From positions 24,935-88,934 of the IMG/VR virus record IMGVR_UViG_3300041809_000801: a DNA stretch of 64,000 nt. One strand, written 5' to 3'. Made by a program: the position numbers and the translations under genes. Shown in pieces: positions 24,101 through 63,979 of this stretch (positions within the stretch are counted from its first letter, which is position 1; each line of letters opens with the position of its first letter). The notes under the pieces were generated by a model, which did no database searches, had not been told where the DNA came from, and saw only the letters and a list, made by a program, of their open reading frames with translations. The stretch is from a virus.

Positions 24101-27100
24101 AGAGTAAAATTCTGCGAAGCTTTTGCATTGATAGCATCCGTTACTTGCACAACAAACGTGTAGGTTTCGGTGTAATCCGAGTTGGGGAATTCTGAGGTAT
24201 AAGTACAGGGAACCCCGCCCAAAATCCCTGAGACTGGATTGATGGTCATGCCAATAGGAAGCTGACCGGCGACGACTGCCCAAGTATATGGAGCCAGACC
24301 GCCAGTGTTTGTAATCTGTGTGGAGTTGCCCGGATACGGCACACCCACAACTGCGTCAGGCAGGGGAAGAGAAACAATCTGCAAGTCAGTCGGAATTGTG
24401 AAAGTCAGGATGGTCTCTGCAATGTAAGCGGGGCTGCTGCTGTCCATACAGGCGAAGTTCACCGTGTACGCACCTAGTGCGGTCGGCGTACCACTGATAG
24501 TGCCATCCACATTCATCTTTAAACCGGGCGGTAGCCCCGTGGAGAACCAACTATACTGAAGCGTTCCGCCTGTTGCTTGCATCTTGAATTCTGTCATCGG
24601 CTTGCCAACGTAGGAGTTCGACGGCAGCGTAACTGTAGTAATCGTCACAGGAACGGAGGACGTTGCTGAGTTCGTTTCAAGAATGTAAATAGGTTCGATA
24701 AGTTCCTTGGCATGTGGACGGCCCATCATCGGAAACACATCAATCGCCATAGTGTTGAGTAACGAACTGGCGTTGGAGAACCGAGAGGTTGCTACCATCA
24801 GTTTGAGTTCATTTGTGACCGTATCACGAGCGACAGAACGAACGACCACTTCATACGGCTGCGGAGTAACGGCGGTGGTGGAGGCATCCACAATTTCGAA
24901 CATGACATTACCACCGATGCCAAGTGTCCCAGTCAATGCTCCCTCTGTGGCTGCGCCGGGGTTGTATTGTTGGTCAAGCACGTAAATCTGCTGCGTGAAT
25001 TGACGGCGGAGTTTTACAGGCGGGTTGGCCGTTCCAAAATCATTCTGAGTCTGAACAATGACATTCTGAGCCCCCGGTGTATTGAACGACTTCGCTACTG
25101 AACGGCTACTGAGAGGCAACCATCCAGTTGAAGTGTTGTCAGGGAACAAAATCTGCCATGCTCCAGCCACATCATAGTTTGCATTCAATGTGATAGTCAG
25201 CGTCTGACCGAGCAACAGATTTGTGTTGTCGAAGGTCACATTCGCCGCTTGCAAAGAAGCTGGAAATACGTGACTGAAATCCCATGGAGCGGAATTGAGA
25301 GCTACTGAGCTATTGGAAGACAACGCCGTCATATTCATGGTGTAATCGCCAGTAGCCAATTCCTCTTCGAACACACGAGCAGAAGCAGTTCCGCCATTCT
25401 CTAAACCGTCCGTGAACACCGTAACTGGAGTTCCAATGCCCGGTGGTGTTTGAAGAACAATGTTCCATCCCAAATAGGCTGTATACACGCCATTCACTGT
25501 GTAAGGTTGCCAGTTCGCCGTCAGGTTGTAGTTTTCATCAATGACAGCGATAGTGGGCGCTGGTAGAAGAGGACTTGCCTGAGCGATGGAACTGGAGATA
25601 ACAACCAGCGGTATCGAATAGGACGTACCGTAGTAGTTGTTGCCATACACTCCATACACATTGGAGCCCACCTGTTGCACAGTTGCTGAGTTGTTACCAG
25701 TTACTGTGGTCACGGGAGTGACAGAGGGTTCTTGTGCGAGGTAAAGGTTTGTAGCCGTTCCCGATGTCGCCCAAGAAACAGTAAACGTGGTGTTGTCTTG
25801 AACCGAGTTGACAGAAGTCGTTGGGTTTGTAATTTCCAACTGGGTGCCAACAGCAGTCACAGTCATGGTAACAATCTGACTGTAGCTGCGCTGAAAACCT
25901 GCGGCTATAGAAGCAACGACAAACTTGTATGTGCCGGGTGTTAGCGCGTTGCCAGCAATCTGATTCGAACTATTGATGTACAACCCATCCGGGGCTCCAC
26001 TGATAACGCCCGGACCAAACTCTGAGCCCCCAATCAACTCGAAAGTTGCGCTTGGAACTACAGCACTCGTCAGGAAGTTGGTCGCTGACAACTGAATTGG
26101 GGTAATGTTTGTGCCTGTGGACGTATTGAGAGTGGGAAGTACACCACCCACAACCAAGGGAGTGTTCCCCAAGCATTCGAACAAAACCTGAGCATACCCC
26201 TGTCGAGTTGGGGAACTAGCTGAGTTCGCGACATCAATCTCCAATACCCACTTGTTACCAATTGCAACACCGGCGGGAAATTGGAAAGAAACTGTAGTGG
26301 TTGGTGCGCCTGAGTTAATCACCAATCCCGTGTTTGTAATTAAAGGGGAGGGGAGGGCTGACTCAATCGGAGACTGATTCTGTGTAGTCAGTGTGATGTA
26401 GAGAGTCTCCGAAACGTTGAATCCATCAGGAGAAGAGAGTGTGATAGTGAGAGTCTGACCAAAATACCCCACCACTTTATCTGGCGTGGAGCCAACAGGG
26501 GGAGCAATACCAACTTTAATGGCCGGTGTCCCCAACCAGCTACCGCCACCACTAGGGCCTAATGAATTGAAGTCAATGATCTTAAGTCCACTCGCAACTG
26601 GAAGAGAATTGCTATCCAGAATCTGAAGACTTACAGAACCGGATGTGGTCGGGGCAGAGATGGTATATGTCGCAAATGTGCTGGTAAGTGTACCGCCACT
26701 ATTAAGTGTAAGAGGACTTGTCCACTGATATTGAAGTGGAAGAGCAACTGGAGAGCCTCCCGACTGTAAAAGACCAAGAAGCACATCAACTTCAGCATCT
26801 ACCTCAAGAAGACCAGAGGTTGTATTGAAGTATGCTCCAAGACCAAAATCTAAAGTACCGGCCTTTTGCGTCTGAGAACTAATGATGAGATTGAGTTGAT
26901 AAGCCCGGTCGGGCTCATCATACATAGAGCCGGGTTGGTATGCTTGAATCGTAAGGGGGACTGTAACCGGCGACGTGGTGTAGATTTGCAAACCACCTAT
27001 AAGGTCAATAGTTTCTAACGGAGCGTTTCCAAAATGCGGCTCCGACACACGAAGTACCAATTGGCTTTCGTTTGAAGTGACGAAGTTCAACCCTGTGGGA

Positions 27101-58792: not shown

Positions 58793-59569
58793 ATGAATGA
58801 AACCAATAATGCGGTAGAATCTACATGTGGAATCTACCGCATCTTCCTTATAGGAACAGACCGCAGTTACGTGGGTCAGGCAAAGAACATAGACCATCGT
58901 TGGTACGACCACAAACGCACTCTTCTAAAGGGCACCCATCATGCTAAGAAGCTGCAAAGAGCGTGGAATAAATATGGAGAAGAGAATTTCAAGTTCGAAG
59001 TGTTAGAAGTCTGTCCTTGCGATGCTTATCTTCTACTCAACCGAGAGCAGCATTGGATGGATACCTTACAGGCGTACAAACGAGGGTTCAATTGCTCTAA
59101 GAGTGCTGGGCTGTCCACTTTGGGGGTAACACACTCATCAGAGACAAAAGCAAAAATTTCAGCTAAAGCTAAAGGGCGAATAACCTCAGATGAGACTAAA
59201 GAGAAGCTTCGTCAGAGGATGAAGAATAGGGTGTTTTCAAAGGAGCATCTTCAGCATTTATCAGAAGCGGGTAAGAAACGAATGAGCGGCTCCCCCGATA
59301 AATTGAAATTGGCTCAATGGTCTAAAGAACATCCAAGGTATGGTGATTCCCACCCTTTATTTGGCAAACATCACTCAGCTAGTTCAAAATTGAAAATGTC
59401 AGAGTCCACCAAAAAGTACCATAAAGACCACCCAGCCACTCCTGAACTCAAAGCCCTTCGTTCCAAGAATGCCAAGGGTTTGTTCAACCCCATGTTCGGA
59501 AGAACCCATTCTGAAGAAACCAAAGAAAAAATACGTCAAGCACGACTAAAACGAGTATCTAGGATGTAG
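58793..59569 (+). CDS. GIY-YIG homing endonuclease with NUMOD3 repeats
   Basis: CGIYRI...YVGQA..R..H; HSSETKAKIS, HPLFGKHHS, NPMFGRTHSEETKEKI. Confidence 0.92.
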   Translation: MNETNNAVESTCGIYRIFLIGTDRSYVGQAKNIDHRWYDHKRTLLKGTHHAKKLQRAWNKYGEENFKFEVLEVCPCDAYLLLNREQHWMDTLQAYKRGFNCSKSAGLSTLGVTHSSETKAKISAKAKGRITSDETKEKLRQRMKNRVFSKEHLQHLSEAGKKRMSGSPDKLKLAQWSKEHPRYGDSHPLFGKHHSASSKLKMSESTKKYHKDHPATPELKALRSKNAKGLFNPMFGRTHSEETKEKIRQARLKRVSRM

Positions 59570-60947: not shown

Positions 60948-61095
60948 AGGGATTCCTCTACTATGATGTCAATAGTCAAATCCTTAATTATTTTTTTGCT
61001 GAAAATAAAGGGTTTAGTAGGTACAGTTCTCAAAATTTCCTCTTAAAACGTATGGAATCAGCAGTTTGAAGACCACACCCGTGTATAATAGAGAC

Positions 61096-61662
61096 ATGCG
61101 AATCGAACTGAAGAACAAGACGCATTATCGTGATGACCACATTCGAGCGTTCCTCGTCAAGGGGATTCAGACAGAACGTCCTGACCTGTGCAAACACGGG
61201 GCTCGGCCTATGCGTGTCATCGTTTCATACCGCCGCAACACGAGCGGGAGTTCAGGCTGTGCCTATCTTCATTCTCATTGGATGACAGTGCGGCTACCGA
61301 AGGACACCACCAAGATTGATAAGGTGGACTTCGCTCTCGTCATTGCTCATGAACTTGGTCACACACGAGGTCTTGACCATCGACGCATGAACTCGTGTGC
61401 CACTTACGGGAGAGTCGGTCGCTGGCGTGAAATCTATGCTTGGGCCGATGGACTCCCGTTGGAAGTCAAACCGAAAACCAGCAAGCGCAAACAGCCTGAT
61501 GCGAAACTGGAGCACTGCAAGCGGATGTTCAAAGCCGCATTGACGCGAGAGAAGAGAGCGACTACACTTCGCAAGAAGTGGGAAGCCAAGGTGAAGTATT
61601 ACACCAAGAGGGCGGCAACTCCGCCTTCGAAAGGGGACACTCATGTTGCAAGTGCGATTTGA
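61096..61662 (+). CDS. Zincin-like metallopeptidase (HExxH)
   Basis: VIAHELGHTRGLDH; ATG 61096 lies 6 nt after TATAAT. Confidence 0.7.
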   Translation: MRIELKNKTHYRDDHIRAFLVKGIQTERPDLCKHGARPMRVIVSYRRNTSGSSGCAYLHSHWMTVRLPKDTTKIDKVDFALVIAHELGHTRGLDHRRMNSCATYGRVGRWREIYAWADGLPLEVKPKTSKRKQPDAKLEHCKRMFKAALTREKRATTLRKKWEAKVKYYTKRAATPPSKGDTHVASAI

Positions 61663-61927
61663 TGACGCTACGAAGACGCGGTTGAAGACAGTGGCGAAGA
61701 GCAAACTGGTGTTGAAATGCCCGACGCACGCTCGTTACAACCCCGGAGAGGGACGCGGAGCCATCAAAGGCTGCTGTCCCGGCTGTGAGGCTGCACTGGA
61801 AGCCTACGAGGCTGTGTGTAATCTTCGTCAGGCTCTCGCTCGGTATTCCGTGCAGACCGAGAGATTTGAAACAGCGAAGCCTCGACAAAAGAAACCCAAA
61901 GCAACTTGCGTTGGAGCCGGAGCCTGA
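61643..61927 (+). CDS. Small Cys/His-rich hypothetical protein
   Basis: CPTHARYNP...CCPGC; AGGGG RBS. Confidence 0.65.
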   Translation: MLQVRFDDATKTRLKTVAKSKLVLKCPTHARYNPGEGRGAIKGCCPGCEAALEAYEAVCNLRQALARYSVQTERFETAKPRQKKPKATCVGAGA

Positions 61928-61943
61928 GGTATAGTTGACGAGT

Positions 61944-62035
61944 TGAGGTTCGGTGGTGTGACGTGGGTTCGGATTAGCCTCCTCTCCACAGAAGTGCTCA
62001 TACCACGCCGTGTAGCGCGGCCACTGCCAGCCTCA
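61944..62035 (+). ncRNA. Unidentified structured RNA A
   Basis: TGAGGTT/AGCCTCA and CGGTGGT/GCCACTG terminal helices, CGTGG/CCACG inner helix; TATAGT -10 at 61930-61935. Confidence 0.45.
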
Positions 62036-62113
62036 CAGAGTTTTCCACAGATTTTTTGAAATGAGTGGACAAAAAGACCAGAATCCGTGTATTATGGATT
62101 TACGTTCTTGAAT

Positions 62114-62240
62114 AGGAAAGCAACTGGCGGGTCACTCGGGGGGTAGTAGGGGAGCCACATCGCTTGCGATTGGAACAACTCCAGCCGAAGCCCAACATGA
62201 AGGCGGGTACTCCGTTTCCGTAGTTGCTTTCCTCCTTTTT
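62114..62240 (+). ncRNA. Unidentified structured RNA B
   Basis: Perfect 12-bp terminal helix AGGAAAGCAACT (62114-62125)/AGTTGCTTTCCT (62222-62233), then T-run; TGGACA-18-TATTAT upstream. Confidence 0.55.
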
Positions 62241-62282
62241 CTAAGCTGTTGCGAAAATAATCGCCAGTGAATGAAAAAGTCC

Positions 62283-62311
62283 TTGCAATTTTCCAACTTT
62301 TGGAGTATTAA
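62283..62311 (+). promoter_or_regulatory. Sigma70-like promoter of the tRNA operon
   Basis: TTGCAA-17 nt-TATTAA. Confidence 0.55.
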
Positions 62312-62331
62312 GTAAGAGAGTGAACAAAACC

Positions 62332-62454
62332 ATGACTATCCAGACCAACATCTCGACCTCCACCGTAGCGGCAGTAGCCGTCGTGGGCGTCGTCGCAGCC
62401 GCTGAAGCCGGTTGCGCGGGAGAGGATACCATGCCTCTGGAGGTCCAAGGATAA
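62332..62454 (+). CDS. Val/Ala/Gly-rich attenuator leader peptide (40 aa; not in ORF track)
   Basis: MTIQTNISTSTVAAVAVVGVVAAAEAGCAGEDTMPLEVQG*; last codons overlap the antiterminator arm. Confidence 0.75.
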   Translation: MTIQTNISTSTVAAVAVVGVVAAAEAGCAGEDTMPLEVQG

Positions 62455-62484
62455 GCGAAAGCGAAATCCGAACTTTCCAGAGGC
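62421..62484 (+). promoter_or_regulatory. Attenuator alternative helices (1:2 and 2:3 antiterminator)
   Basis: AGAGG(62421-25)/CCTCT(62434-38); GCCTCTGGA(62433-41)/TCCAGAGGC(62476-84), which overlaps the terminator 5' arm. Confidence 0.7.
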
Positions 62485-62513
62485 CAGCCGAAAAAGGCTG
62501 GCTTTTGATTTTT
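62479..62513 (+). terminator. Intrinsic terminator (attenuator 3:4) before first tRNA
   Basis: GCCAGCC-GAAAAA-GGCTGGC followed by TTTTGATTTTT. Confidence 0.85.
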
Positions 62514-62532
62514 GTAGCAAACAATTTGTTGT

Positions 62533-62610
62533 GCTCCGGTGGTGTGAGTGGCCTATACCGCCTCCCCTACAAGGAGGATTTCACAGGTTCGAATCCTGTC
62601 TGGAGCACCA
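62533..62610 (+). tRNA. tRNA-Val(TAC), atypical C33
   Basis: Acceptor GCTCCGG/CTGGAGC-A-CCA; anticodon arm CCTCC-CCTACAA-GGAGG; T arm ACAGG-TTCGAAT-CCTGT. Confidence 0.85.
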
Positions 62611-62612
62611 AT

Positions 62613-62688
62613 GCGGGAGTAGCTCAGTTGGTAGAGCGCAACCTTGCCAAGGTTGAGGTCGCGGGTTCGAATCCCACATCCCGCTCCA
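62613..62688 (+). tRNA. tRNA-Gly(GCC)
   Basis: GCGGGAGTAGCTCAGTTGGTAGAGC..CTTGCCAAG..GGTTCGAATCC..TCCCGCTCCA; two stem mismatches. Confidence 0.93.
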
Positions 62689-62703: not shown

Positions 62704-63312
62704 TTAGTGGGCTCGTCGTTCAGCGGGAGGACTACACGCTTGCACCGTGCCAACGAGAGTTCGAATCTCTCCGGGTCCACCAGATTTTAGATTTGTGTAC
62801 ATGCCATCATGGGCTGTGTAGTGTTCCTCTTCATGACAGGTTGGACACAGAATTTCAAGGTTTTCGGGTTTACCATTTTTTCGGTTACGGTCGATATGGT
62901 GTACTCGTAAAACAGGGATGTGGCGGTTGTAGCCACATCTGTTGCATCGGGCAGGATGGTGTCTAAATGCGATTTTTCTGTATTTAAGTTCTGACGTTCC
63001 ATAATGTTCAGGCTGAATCGCAGAGCAGTTACCGTCATCAATGCTTTGGGCTTTATTTTTACAGACGCGAGAGCAGAAACGCAGACCGCTCTTGGATTTT
63101 TTCAGATTGCTTTTGAACTTCTTGAAGGTAGTCTTGCAATAAACACAGGTTACTTCCACTGATTCACGACCCGGTTGGGCACAGGTCAGGGAACAAAATT
63201 TAAGCTTGTTGTGGGTGGAGCCATAGTAAGGTTCCTTGCAGTTTTCACAGTAACGCAAGTAAAGTCGGCGTTTCTTGCCATCTTTACATTTGGAGATAAT
63301 CTCCTTCTCCAT
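62704..63312 (-). CDS. HNH homing endonuclease inserted antisense in the tRNA array
   Basis: FCSLTC, FCSRVC, CNRCG..VHHIDRNRKN....NLEILCPTCHEEEH; ATG 63312 with GAGG. Confidence 0.88.
   Translation of the reverse strand: MEKEIISKCKDGKKRRLYLRYCENCKEPYYGSTHNKLKFCSLTCAQPGRESVEVTCVYCKTTFKKFKSNLKKSKSGLRFCSRVCKNKAQSIDDGNCSAIQPEHYGTSELKYRKIAFRHHPARCNRCGYNRHIPVLRVHHIDRNRKNGKPENLEILCPTCHEEEHYTAHDGMYTNLKSGGPGEIRTLVGTVQACSPPAERRAH
62709..62782 (+). tRNA. tRNA-Ala(TGC)
   Basis: Acceptor GGGCTCG/CGGGTCC-A-CCA with G3:U70; anticodon loop CTTGCAC. Confidence 0.9.
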
Positions 63313-63377
63313 GGTGTGTGCCTCGCTTATGTAAGATAGGTACTCACTAAGGGGTTTGATATTTGACAATTTTAGTT

Positions 63378-63706
63378 TGCACTGGAACTGGACAATCGCG
63401 ACGTGGCGCAATACCACTTCGAGGAAGTTCGGGACTCCATAGGACAGCATGTAGGGTAACGCCCTAGCAGTTGGCGGCTTAACCGCCGTCGATTGACGAT
63501 TAGAGCAACAGAGACGAGCCGATTTAATTCGGGTGAAACGGGCAATCTCCATGTGGAGCAATTCCAAATAGGCCGTGAGACTTGTGTCCGAGTCGTTATC
63601 AAGCGGCGGGTTGGGAGCTAGAGCCAGACGGTAACGGCTGGCCGAGACGAATGATTGTGCATGAGGGAAACCTCAAGACAGAATCCCGGCTATAGGTTCC
63701 AGTGCA
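63378..63706 (+). ncRNA. rnpB: RNase P RNA (bacterial type A-like, lacking P13/P14)
   Basis: P1 TGCACTGGAAC/GTTCCAGTGCA; P4 GAGGAAGTTCGGGA...ACAGAATCCCGGCTATA; GCAACAGAGA, GGGTGAAACGG, GGAGCAA..AAATAGG, GCTAGAG, P18 GCCAG..CTGGC, AGACGAATGATTGT. Confidence 0.93.
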
Positions 63707-63781
63707 TTAAGCGGGGTGACACCTTCCATGGCGAAAGCCAAAAGTGGTGTGGCACAACGGAGAGGACGTTGAGATTTTTGA

Positions 63782-63855
63782 GCGAGGTTGGTATATGGGT
63801 TGTGCCCAGTCCTTCCAAGTCTGAGAAAGGGGTTCGAGTCCCCTACCTCGCTCCA
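63782..63855 (+). tRNA. tRNA-Gly(TCC)
   Basis: GCGAGGT/ACCTCGC-T-CCA; anticodon loop CTTCCAA; AGGGG-TTCGAGT-CCCCT. Confidence 0.9.
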
Positions 63856-63979
63856 AGCTTAGGTGCCGTGTTCACCACCGTCTAGTAGCTTCGCTGTGGT
63901 GGCGAAGTGAAAAACGGGGGCGGAAGCGGCTCCGGTGGAGGGTGGGCTTAACCAGCCCACCAACCCGAACGGTGTTATA

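Follow-up and report, generated by a model that had tools for sequence, protein, structure and literature searches.

A bacterial type A RNase P RNA gene in the tRNA array of a group of huge phages

The stretch of DNA analysed here (the window) comprises 64,000 nucleotides (nt), positions 24,935 to 88,934 of the IMG/VR virus record IMGVR_UViG_3300041809_000801. Close to its end, within an array of transfer RNA (tRNA) genes, it carries a full-length gene for the bacterial type A RNA of ribonuclease P (RNase P). This ribozyme trims the 5' end of new tRNAs; it is normally supplied by the cell, where it is seen as a universal housekeeping component. Here the gene belongs to a very large uncultured wetland phage, its structure is conserved under selection, its RNA reaches a high depth in RNA libraries and the record that carries it has no match to the rnpA family. 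We consider, with a probability of about 0.72, that it is a working and vertically inherited phage gene for bacterial type A RNase P RNA that serves the maturation of phage tRNAs. If so, the RNA would be catalytically active with the RnpA protein of the host, would be transcribed with the neighbouring tRNAs and would benefit the phage.

Identification and architecture of the RNase P RNA gene

A cmscan search against Rfam 15 gives a match to RF00010 (RNaseP_bact_a) at 63380-63708 on the + strand, with a score of 165.2 bits (gathering score 100) and an E-value of 1.7e-51. The match spans model positions 1-367 and is not truncated, and clan competition retains type A. The gene and the parts that locate its main features are as follows.

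63379-63708, + strand: RNase P RNA gene, bacterial type A, about 327-330 nt (RF00010 match, covariation, exact RNA contigs)
63379-63388 with 63696-63705, + strand: P1, a perfect 10-bp helix in the sequence
P2: seven of eight pairs formed in the window sequence
63442-63446, + strand: 5' strand of P6, GGACA, in a pseudoknot with TGTCC (63585-63589) in the P17 loop
63519-63532, + strand: P12, a 4-bp stub with a hexaloop; GGGUGAAAC leads directly into the 3' strand of P11
63608-63611, + strand: GGGU of the P15/16 loop (L15); CGGGU is invariant in 13 of 13 phage copies
63662-63675, + strand: optional P19 hairpin GAGG-GAAA-CCTC (63663-63674), between P2 and the 3' strand of P4

P1, P2, P3, P4, P5, P6, P7-P11, the P12 stub, P15-P18 and P19 can all be paired in the window. 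The arm formed by P15, P16 and P17, together with the P6 pseudoknot, separates type A from type B, and the GGU of L15 in type A enzymes pairs with the 3'-CCA of tRNAs. P18 loops are of the GNRA kind. Every type A feature that could be tested was found, with the exception of P13/P14: 43 model positions are deleted and the sequence runs from GGGUGAAA to the 3' strand of P11. These two helices are peripheral, being present in most type A RNAs and not required. The absence of P13/P14 and the short P12 are common to all 13 phage copies compared.

The first-pass annotation, made from the sequence alone, had placed an RNase P ribozyme at 63378-63706 inside the tRNA array, had listed its helices and had noted the absence of P13/P14. 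The model match bears out the locus, all the helices that it listed can be formed, and the 43 deleted positions agree with the missing helices. The gene does lie within the array, with tRNA-Val, tRNA-Gly and tRNA-Ala upstream and tRNA-Gly(TCC) downstream, an HNH endonuclease gene intervening between tRNA-Ala and the RNase P gene.

The locus belongs to a clade of huge phages

The window makes up the final 64 kb of a record of 88.9 kb, and 292 bp separate the RNase P locus from the record end. The gene content of this record includes NAMPT, a Dda-like helicase, a DnaB-like helicase and a ribonucleotide reductase (RNR), together with an endolysin, an Rz-like spanin and virion, head-decoration and tail proteins. 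It also encodes at least five homing endonucleases (GIY-YIG or HNH). Since Terminase_6N (PF03237) has no match in the record or in four relatives, phage identity rests on these other genes. GC content along the window is even (0.46-0.52). The phage has a GC content of about 49%, and the flanks of the RNase P locus of a Candidatus Limnocylindria genome (L063) are visibly GC-rich. The last 21 bases of the contig (63980-64000) resemble the acceptor and D arm of a further tRNA; hence, the contig looks as if it breaks within a repetitive tRNA array that continues past the record end.

An exact scan of IMG/VR with the 5' strand of P4 as found in the window plus downstream bases gave no match, the window's own record being left out, because a few flanking bases differ in the relatives. 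These were therefore gathered by an IMG/VR search with the RNR protein, whose gene lies 4.6 kb upstream of the RNase P gene, and 48 loci were obtained. All 12 records with an RNR at least 69% identical contain exactly one RF00010 match (141-209 bits), always 4-6 kb downstream of RNR, inside a tRNA array and far from the contig ends. Three of them are rated 100% complete by CheckV (463, 456 and 332 kb) and carry the gene at about 305.8, 92 and 126 kb, respectively. No RF00010 match was found in the 36 records with a more distant RNR, most of which have much smaller estimated genomes and two of which are complete. A blastn search of 63300-63800 against 50,697 GenBank phage records gave no match. 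The gene thus has a conserved position in related viral genomes, among phage genes and away from the ends, and the RNase P locus is phage DNA, a host flank being excluded. The carriers, which were sampled in wetlands, peat and soils, form a clade of huge phages with genomes of about 260-463 kb.

RNR and RNase P trees are concordant for the pair formed by the window and its closest relative (L038) and for L005 with L007; they are discordant for L004 and L048. The RNase P RNAs of these two loci (L004/L057 and L048/L051) have a P4 of the window type, yet RNR groups both elsewhere with 99-100% support. Because the two trees disagree on L004 and L048, the data suggest that related phages may have exchanged either the tRNA/RNase P region or the RNR region.

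The RNR of L038 is about 89% identical overall to that of the window and is split (L038 1-2685): residues 104-328 and 325-635 match as two pieces that extend across 2.7 kb. This layout implies that about 1.1 kb has been inserted, be it an intron, an intein or an endonuclease gene. The RNR gene of the window is followed immediately by one for a GIY-YIG endonuclease (58793-59569).

The RNA structure is under selection

The clade alignment comprises 13 copies, 11 of them distinct, and the structure counted includes P1-P12, P15-P18 and the P4 and P6 pseudoknots (84 pairs). Among the 11 distinct copies, 94.9% of the cells are paired, versus 77% in shuffled alignments and 33-42% when partners are slid by 1-3 columns. 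Changes on both sides affect 53 of the 84 pairs, a number reached by none of 500 shuffles, and an independent RNAalifold run found compensatory changes in 48 of 74 pairs. Hence, the RNA structure is conserved under selection.

The most regular helices are P4, P5, P7, P10, P11, P15 and P16 (100% paired); P7-P11 as a whole are 94-100% paired and P15, P16 and P17 91-100%. P6 takes the forms GGACA/TGTCC, GAACA/TGTTC, GGAT/ATCC, GAGC/GCTC and AAGCA/TGCTT across the clade, three of its five pairs being changed on both sides and the rows scored as unpaired being MAFFT misalignments. The optional P19 shows compensatory changes in L059, is replaced by other hairpins in L050, L058 and L052, and is lacking in the remaining copies.

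Unpaired blocks are also invariant or nearly so: GAGGAA, ACAGAGACGAG, GGGUGAAAC, CAAAUAGG, CGGGU of L15 and GAAUG. The core of the specificity domain is retained, that is the P7-P11 cruciform and the joining regions J11/12 and J12/13 (CR-II, CR-III), where ACAGAGACGAG and GGGUGAAAC hardly vary. Furthermore, P2/P3, J18/2 and J2/4, to which RnpA binds in the bacterial enzymes, are conserved in the phage copies.

A hairpin module of about 30-37 nt (GGAAGCG..GNAA..CUUCCCAACC) occurs in P3 of the RNase P RNA of one relative and in P9 of three others. Its sites are L057 1805-1832 (- strand), L054 1613-1640 and L059 1603-1630, with a shorter form in L058. The window RNA does not have it and it was found nowhere else among the 168 loci compared. 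It looks like a transplantable module for a tertiary contact or for protein binding.

The RNA is abundant in wetland RNA libraries

Three wetland metatranscriptome runs (X2, X3 and X5), from three coded studies of 2017-2018, contain contigs of the gene. Their depth was compared with that of neighbouring contigs of the same runs (upstream leader, HNH gene and 3' flank).

X2, 63396-63846, into tRNA-Gly: RNase P contig of 451 nt, depth 175 (neighbours 2.6-5.9)
X3, 63036-63539, from inside the HNH region: RNase P contig of 504 nt, depth 671 (neighbours 2.0-6.7)
X5, 63396-63646: RNase P contig of 251 nt, depth 620 (neighbours 2.8-5.2)

None of these contigs has a mismatch to the gene. In a DNA run, depth is flat (8-9) and one contig spans 62641-64000. 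The RNase P RNA is therefore far over-represented in the RNA libraries, as expected of a stable RNA. X5 also contains a second, diverged RNase P contig (depth 111) that belongs to a related strain.

The contigs join the HNH region to the RNase P gene (X3) and the RNase P gene to tRNA-Gly (X2), a continuity that, being drawn from contigs, does not prove a single transcript. The first-pass annotation had suggested that the RNase P RNA may be co-induced with the attenuated tRNAs upstream; in this phage, an HNH gene of opposite orientation now stands between the two. In two runs, the contig boundary at 63396 reflects a break in the assembly and not an RNA end. The region 61000-62110 is covered by the DNA run and has no cover in the three RNA runs, which is weak evidence.

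The leader upstream of tRNA-Val (62126-62640) is covered by RNA contigs of X2, X3 and X5 at a depth of 5-7. At 63878, 25 nt are missing from contigs of X1 and X5, which marks an indel that is polymorphic between strains.

The protein partner is most likely that of the host

Neither the 88.9-kb record nor five relatives, three of them complete, yielded an rnpA gene (PF00825) in a search that detects this gene in 10 of 14 control genomes. The lack of rnpA noted at first for the window thus extends to the rest of the record. RnpA proteins are interchangeable between bacterial species (PMC4919922). Since the phages have no rnpA and RnpA is interchangeable between bacteria, the phage RNA most likely assembles with the RnpA of the host. 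This partnership had been proposed from the window alone: the premise of a missing phage gene is strengthened by the three complete relatives, and the pairing with the host protein keeps the standing of a prediction from genome content. Without a phage RnpA, the RNA must borrow a host protein or dispense with protein, which bears on the interchangeability of the subunits.

A rewritten P4 helix

P4, the long-range helix of the catalytic centre built from CR-I and CR-V, departs from the consensus sequence in the window RNA.

63426-63434, + strand: 5' strand of P4, AGU-U-CGGGA (consensus AAG-U-CCGGG), with the bulged U kept at 63429
63684-63691, + strand: 3' strand of P4, UCCCGGCU (consensus CCCGGCUU), pairing column for column with 63426-63434

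The flanks of P4 had been read by the first-pass annotation as about one base shorter than canonical. This is not the case: in the cmscan alignment both strands are gap-free against the consensus and the layout is canonical (three pairs, the bulged U, five pairs). What differs is the identity of four pairs, AGU-U-CGGGA / UCCCG-GCU in the window versus AAG-U-CCGGG / CCCGG-CUU in the consensus:

Second pair from the outer end: A-U to G-C
Third pair: G-C to U.G
Second pair after the bulge: C-G to G-C
Innermost pair: G-C to A-U

The compensatory pairing that the same annotation had seen in P4 is real, as 100% of the P4 cells are paired and four of the eight pairs covary among the 11 copies. Three states can be distinguished in the clade: P4 is canonical in L050, L052, L055, L056, L060 and L061, carries a single swap (C-G to G-C) in L054 and L058, and is of the window type in the window, L057, L051, L059 and L053. 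In the RNase P RNA tree, the canonical P4 is basal and the window type is derived. Further compensatory changes followed the rewrite, with one G-C pair becoming A-U in L053 and one A-U pair going back to G-C in L059.

In Thermotoga maritima, the phosphates of A50 and G51 bind catalytic metals and the bulged U (U52) is universally conserved (PMC4919922). We searched one genome per species from 185,579 prokaryote species for the 5' strand of the window-type P4. The 20 matches obtained are about as many as chance would give, and just one of them lies in an RNase P RNA, the single one of a Candidatus Limnocylindria metagenome-assembled genome (MAG) of the Chloroflexota. Of the four swaps of the window, its P4 shares G-C and U.G and lacks the other two. 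Since this MAG has these pairs in its only RNase P RNA, the rewrite is compatible with life in at least one cell lineage, and it is almost unknown outside these phages.

Loss of P13/P14 and possible origin of the gene

The reduced core had been presented as noteworthy. However, bacterial RNase P RNAs without P13/P14 are not uncommon (PMC8172020), and archaeal type A RNAs lack these helices as a rule (PMC4919922). In the Chloroflexota class that holds Candidatus Limnocylindria, an RF00010 match was found in 41 of 41 genomes and 30 sequences were inspected. In 21 of these, GGUGAAACG runs straight into GGCAA, which means no P13/P14; the simple pattern gave no read-out for the other nine, none of which has a long insert of P13/P14 size. 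The same two blocks are 40-74 nt apart in ten RNAs of other phyla. P13/P14 loss is thus ordinary rather than special, because it is not uncommon in bacteria and is the rule in a whole Chloroflexota class.

About half of the 30 class RNAs are only 286-303 nt long. These are among the shortest type A RNAs; the set inspected is L082 (L063 1283-1579, minus strand) and L083-L111. P4 variants in the class include AAAGUCGGGG/CCCCGCUU, AACGUCC/GGCGU and one AAGUUCCGGG/CCCGGGCU.

A comparison of the phage RNAs with 45 cellular RNase P RNAs by summed blastn scores gave a mixed picture with a sampling bias, and a maximum-likelihood tree (284 well-filled columns) was used instead. The 11 phage copies form one clade (support 100/98). 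This clade groups with the Limnocylindria class and one long-branched Peribacteria RNA against the 14 RNAs of other phyla (96/84), phyla outside the Chloroflexota being thinly sampled (14 genomes), and it is not nested in the sampled Chloroflexota class. Of the cellular RNAs sampled, the nearest to the phage copies belong to this class. The class RNAs resemble the phage RNAs in having no P13/P14 and a short P12, and one MAG has the window-type G-C and U.G pairs. They differ in that they are single-copy cellular genes, GC-rich and outside tRNA arrays, whereas the phage RNAs form a separate clade. Among the phyla sampled, this gives a weak lead towards a Chloroflexota-like origin of the phage gene. 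The shared architecture is a first lead, likewise weak, to where the gene came from and perhaps also to the host.

The tRNA array and its rearrangements

The neighbours of the RNase P gene in the window are the following.

62533-62610, + strand: tRNA-Val(TAC), CCA encoded (ARAGORN, Rfam)
62613-62688, + strand: tRNA-Gly(GCC), CCA encoded (ARAGORN, Rfam)
62709-62782, + strand: tRNA-Ala(TGC), CCA encoded (ARAGORN, Rfam)
62704-63312, - strand: HNH homing endonuclease gene, 0.6 kb (phrog_1271, E 3e-17; Pfam HNH, E 6e-6)
63709-63781, + strand: spacer of 73 nt with a decayed tRNA-Glu(TTC) remnant (L059 alignment, L038 tRNA list)
63755-63771, in the spacer between RNase P and tRNA-Gly: terminator-like hairpin followed by a T run (terminator scan, fold)
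63782-63855, + strand: tRNA-Gly(TCC), downstream of RNase P (ARAGORN, Rfam)

CCA is encoded by all four tRNAs of the window and by 43 of 47 tRNAs of three relatives (47 of 51 in total). The loci of the 12 relatives (the RNase P gene with 1.5 kb on each side, about 3.3 kb) contain 137 tRNA matches. Where tRNAs abut the RNase P gene in the relatives, they end about 9 nt before it or start 5-8 nt after it.

The 47 tRNAs come from the arrays of L003 (16127-19940), L038 (6058-12023) and L004 (15346-20666) and are solely for Val, Ala, Asp, Glu, Gly and Cys. Those for Val, Ala, Asp, Glu and Gly all read GNN codons, a set that the Val, Gly, Ala and Gly tRNAs of the window fit.

The HNH gene separates tRNA-Ala from the RNase P gene and its reading frame extends through the antisense strand of tRNA-Ala. 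In the closest relative, a 97.7% identical tRNA-Ala directly abuts the RNase P gene, and an HNH gene with 52% identity is found at a distance of 3 kb. The HNH gene is thus a homing-endonuclease insertion specific to the window phage, because the closest relative has an empty site and a 52% identical copy elsewhere. On the downstream side, this relative has an intact tRNA-Glu(TTC) right after the RNase P gene; ARAGORN and Rfam call none in the spacer of the window.

A proposed role in phage tRNA maturation and its alternatives

If the gene is a working one that serves phage tRNA maturation, its RNA would probably be transcribed together with the tRNAs of the array and would be freed from the polycistronic precursor as the tRNAs on either side are processed. 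It keeps both the whole catalytic domain (P1-P6, P15-P18 and the CCA-pairing GGU) and the modules that read the tRNA elbow (P7-P11, J11/12 and J12/13), only the P13/P14 braces being missing. Assembled with host RnpA, it would increase or secure RNase P capacity in the infected cell, and the enzyme would remove the 5' leaders of the many CCA-ending pre-tRNAs of the phage. In the window phage and four relatives, P4 has been rewritten by four compensatory swaps that leave its geometry unchanged, and an HNH homing endonuclease has landed between the gene and the upstream tRNA in the window phage alone.

Several points weigh against this proposal. The HNH insertion removes the direct junction between tRNA and RNase P in this phage, and a scan for sigma-70-like promoters found none directly upstream of the RNase P gene. 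In the window RNA, the equivalents of T. maritima A50 and G51 are G and U, and it is possible that the rewritten P4 carries a kinetic cost or a changed function. A phage protein unrelated to RnpA could be the partner instead. Expression is read from assembled contigs with one depth figure each, which give neither strand nor ends, and the three wetland studies may be one campaign. Finally, the record of the window is rated 29% complete.

The alternative that survives best, unlikely as it is, is that the RNA is a true ribozyme private to the phage, acting with an unrecognised phage protein or with none, or one whose main substrates are not tRNAs and may be phage messenger RNAs or tRNA-like elements. 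The complete relatives of 332-463 kb lack RnpA and encode mostly proteins of unknown function, which leaves room for such a partner, and bacterial RNase P does cut non-tRNA substrates, including phage-induced regulatory RNAs (PMC4919922). However, the fixed site in a tRNA array, the conserved CCA-binding GGU and the CCA-encoding tRNAs point to tRNAs as substrates, and the conservation of P2/P3, J18/2 and J2/4, through which bacterial RNAs bind RnpA, speaks for a partner of the ordinary kind.

Rather improbable is a non-catalytic decoy or regulator that keeps the fold and binds host RnpA or pre-tRNAs, catalysis being crippled, and so titrates or redirects the host enzyme. A high abundance in RNA libraries would suit such a role, as would the replacement by G and U of the bases at the metal-binding phosphates and a P4 5' strand seen in just one genuine cellular RNase P RNA among 185,579 species. 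However, the contacts to the metals are made by backbone phosphates, the bulged U is kept and the helix geometry is the same. Moreover, the free-living Limnocylindria genome has G-C and U.G in its only RNase P RNA, which is necessarily active. The canonical P4 of the basal clade members indicates that the ancestral role was ordinary, and the modules that bind CCA and the T-loop are conserved throughout.

It is very improbable that the gene is a recently captured and decaying host gene, a passenger of a mobile tRNA region that is functionless for the phage. The neighbourhood is certainly in flux, with the HNH insertion upstream and the decayed tRNA-Glu downstream, and the lengths of P3, P9 and P12 vary strongly between relatives. 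Against a passenger stand the presence of the gene in 12 of 12 relatives despite RNR divergence (69-86% identity, the closest being about 89% identical overall), the monophyly of the phage copies (100/98) apart from all sampled bacteria, and the 53 of 84 compensated pairs, 94.9% paired cells and high RNA depth.

It is scarcely credible that the locus stems from host contamination or from a chimeric join near the end of the contig: it does lie 292 bp from the end of a 29% complete record, and of 17 other IMG/VR loci 13 have an RF00010 match, 11 of these 13 being without nearby tRNAs and host-flank-like, but the relatives carry the gene at the same place downstream of RNR deep in contigs of up to 463 kb, the DNA contig spans 62641-64000, GC is flat and the contig ends inside a tRNA array.

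Significance

A phage gene for RNase P RNA extends the parts of the translation system that viruses are known to carry, such as tRNAs and transfer-messenger RNA (tmRNA), by a trans-acting catalytic RNA. It implies that phage tRNA arrays can be limited in their use by the 5' maturation step. Furthermore, the graded P4 variants at metal-binding positions, one of them nearly unknown in cells, are useful for structure-function work on the catalytic centre.

More speculatively, the tRNA array and the RNase P RNA might form a self-contained tRNA supply module that goes on functioning while tRNA maturation in the host is switched off or under attack, for instance through host shut-off or a tRNA-targeting defence, an idea that we hold to be doubtful. 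If it were true, the rewritten P4 would mark an enzyme orthogonal to that of the host, through a phage protein, through no protein or by escape from a factor acting on the host RNA. The P4 series from canonical to one swap to four would then be a natural record of the rewriting of the most conserved helix of a universal ribozyme.

Comparison with known systems

No description of a virus-encoded RNase P RNA was found in the full-text literature, subscription journals lying outside its coverage; this includes PMC7162821, PMC7191817, PMC6582537 and jumbo-phage reviews. The canonical P4 5'-strand pattern occurs in 35 of 2.9 million IMG/VR contigs. Both results agree with the initial statement that RNase P RNA is rare in viruses. 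We checked 17 of these 35 loci with Rfam: 13 have an RF00010 match and only two of the 13 (L134 and L143) are surrounded by tRNA arrays, the rest being host-flank-like. In these two dense tRNA arrays outside the clade, the matches are L134 2968-3382 (- strand, 415 nt, 266 bits) and L143 5399-5667 (- strand, 269 nt, 136 bits). L136, which derives from a 168-kb contig, also shows the canonical 5' strand of P4 within a tRNA array. No RF00010 match there exceeds the gathering score, and this locus may hold an RNase P RNA that has diverged further.

The phage RNA shares P1-P12, P15-P18 and the P4 and P6 pseudoknots with Escherichia coli M1 RNA (rnpB), the T. maritima RNA (PDB 3Q1R) and the RF00010 model. 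With type A RNAs in general, it also shares the bulged U in P4, CR-II/CR-III, the GGU of L15 and a GNRA L18. Unlike cellular type A RNAs, it is encoded by a virus, in a tRNA array and in a genome where no rnpA was found. It also differs from them by the absence of P13/P14, a P12 of 4 bp and the swap of four of the eight P4 pairs.

The nearest published analogue, in that a phage ribozyme is linked to phage tRNA genes, is provided by the theta ribozymes. These hepatitis delta virus-like ribozymes lie beside tRNA genes in gut phages and have been proposed to allow tRNA maturation independently of host RNases (PMC10879173). However, theta ribozymes are small, self-cleave in cis and are proposed to trim 3' trailers, whereas RNase P RNA would act here as the trans-acting, multiple-turnover 5' endonuclease of the cellular type.

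To our knowledge, phage T4 has no RNase P RNA and relies on the enzyme of its host. The tRNA gene region of T4 harbours the homing endonuclease SegB (PMC2330249, as cited in PMC6582537), and exchange of this region between related phages is promoted by homing endonucleases. The likeness lies in a homing endonuclease lodged in a phage tRNA cluster, which fits both the HNH insertion in the window and the mismatch between RNase P and RNR trees. Finally, huge phages have been described that carry tRNAs and tmRNA, RNase P not being mentioned (PMC7162821). The phages described here are like them in harbouring translation RNAs of the cellular type in their genomes.

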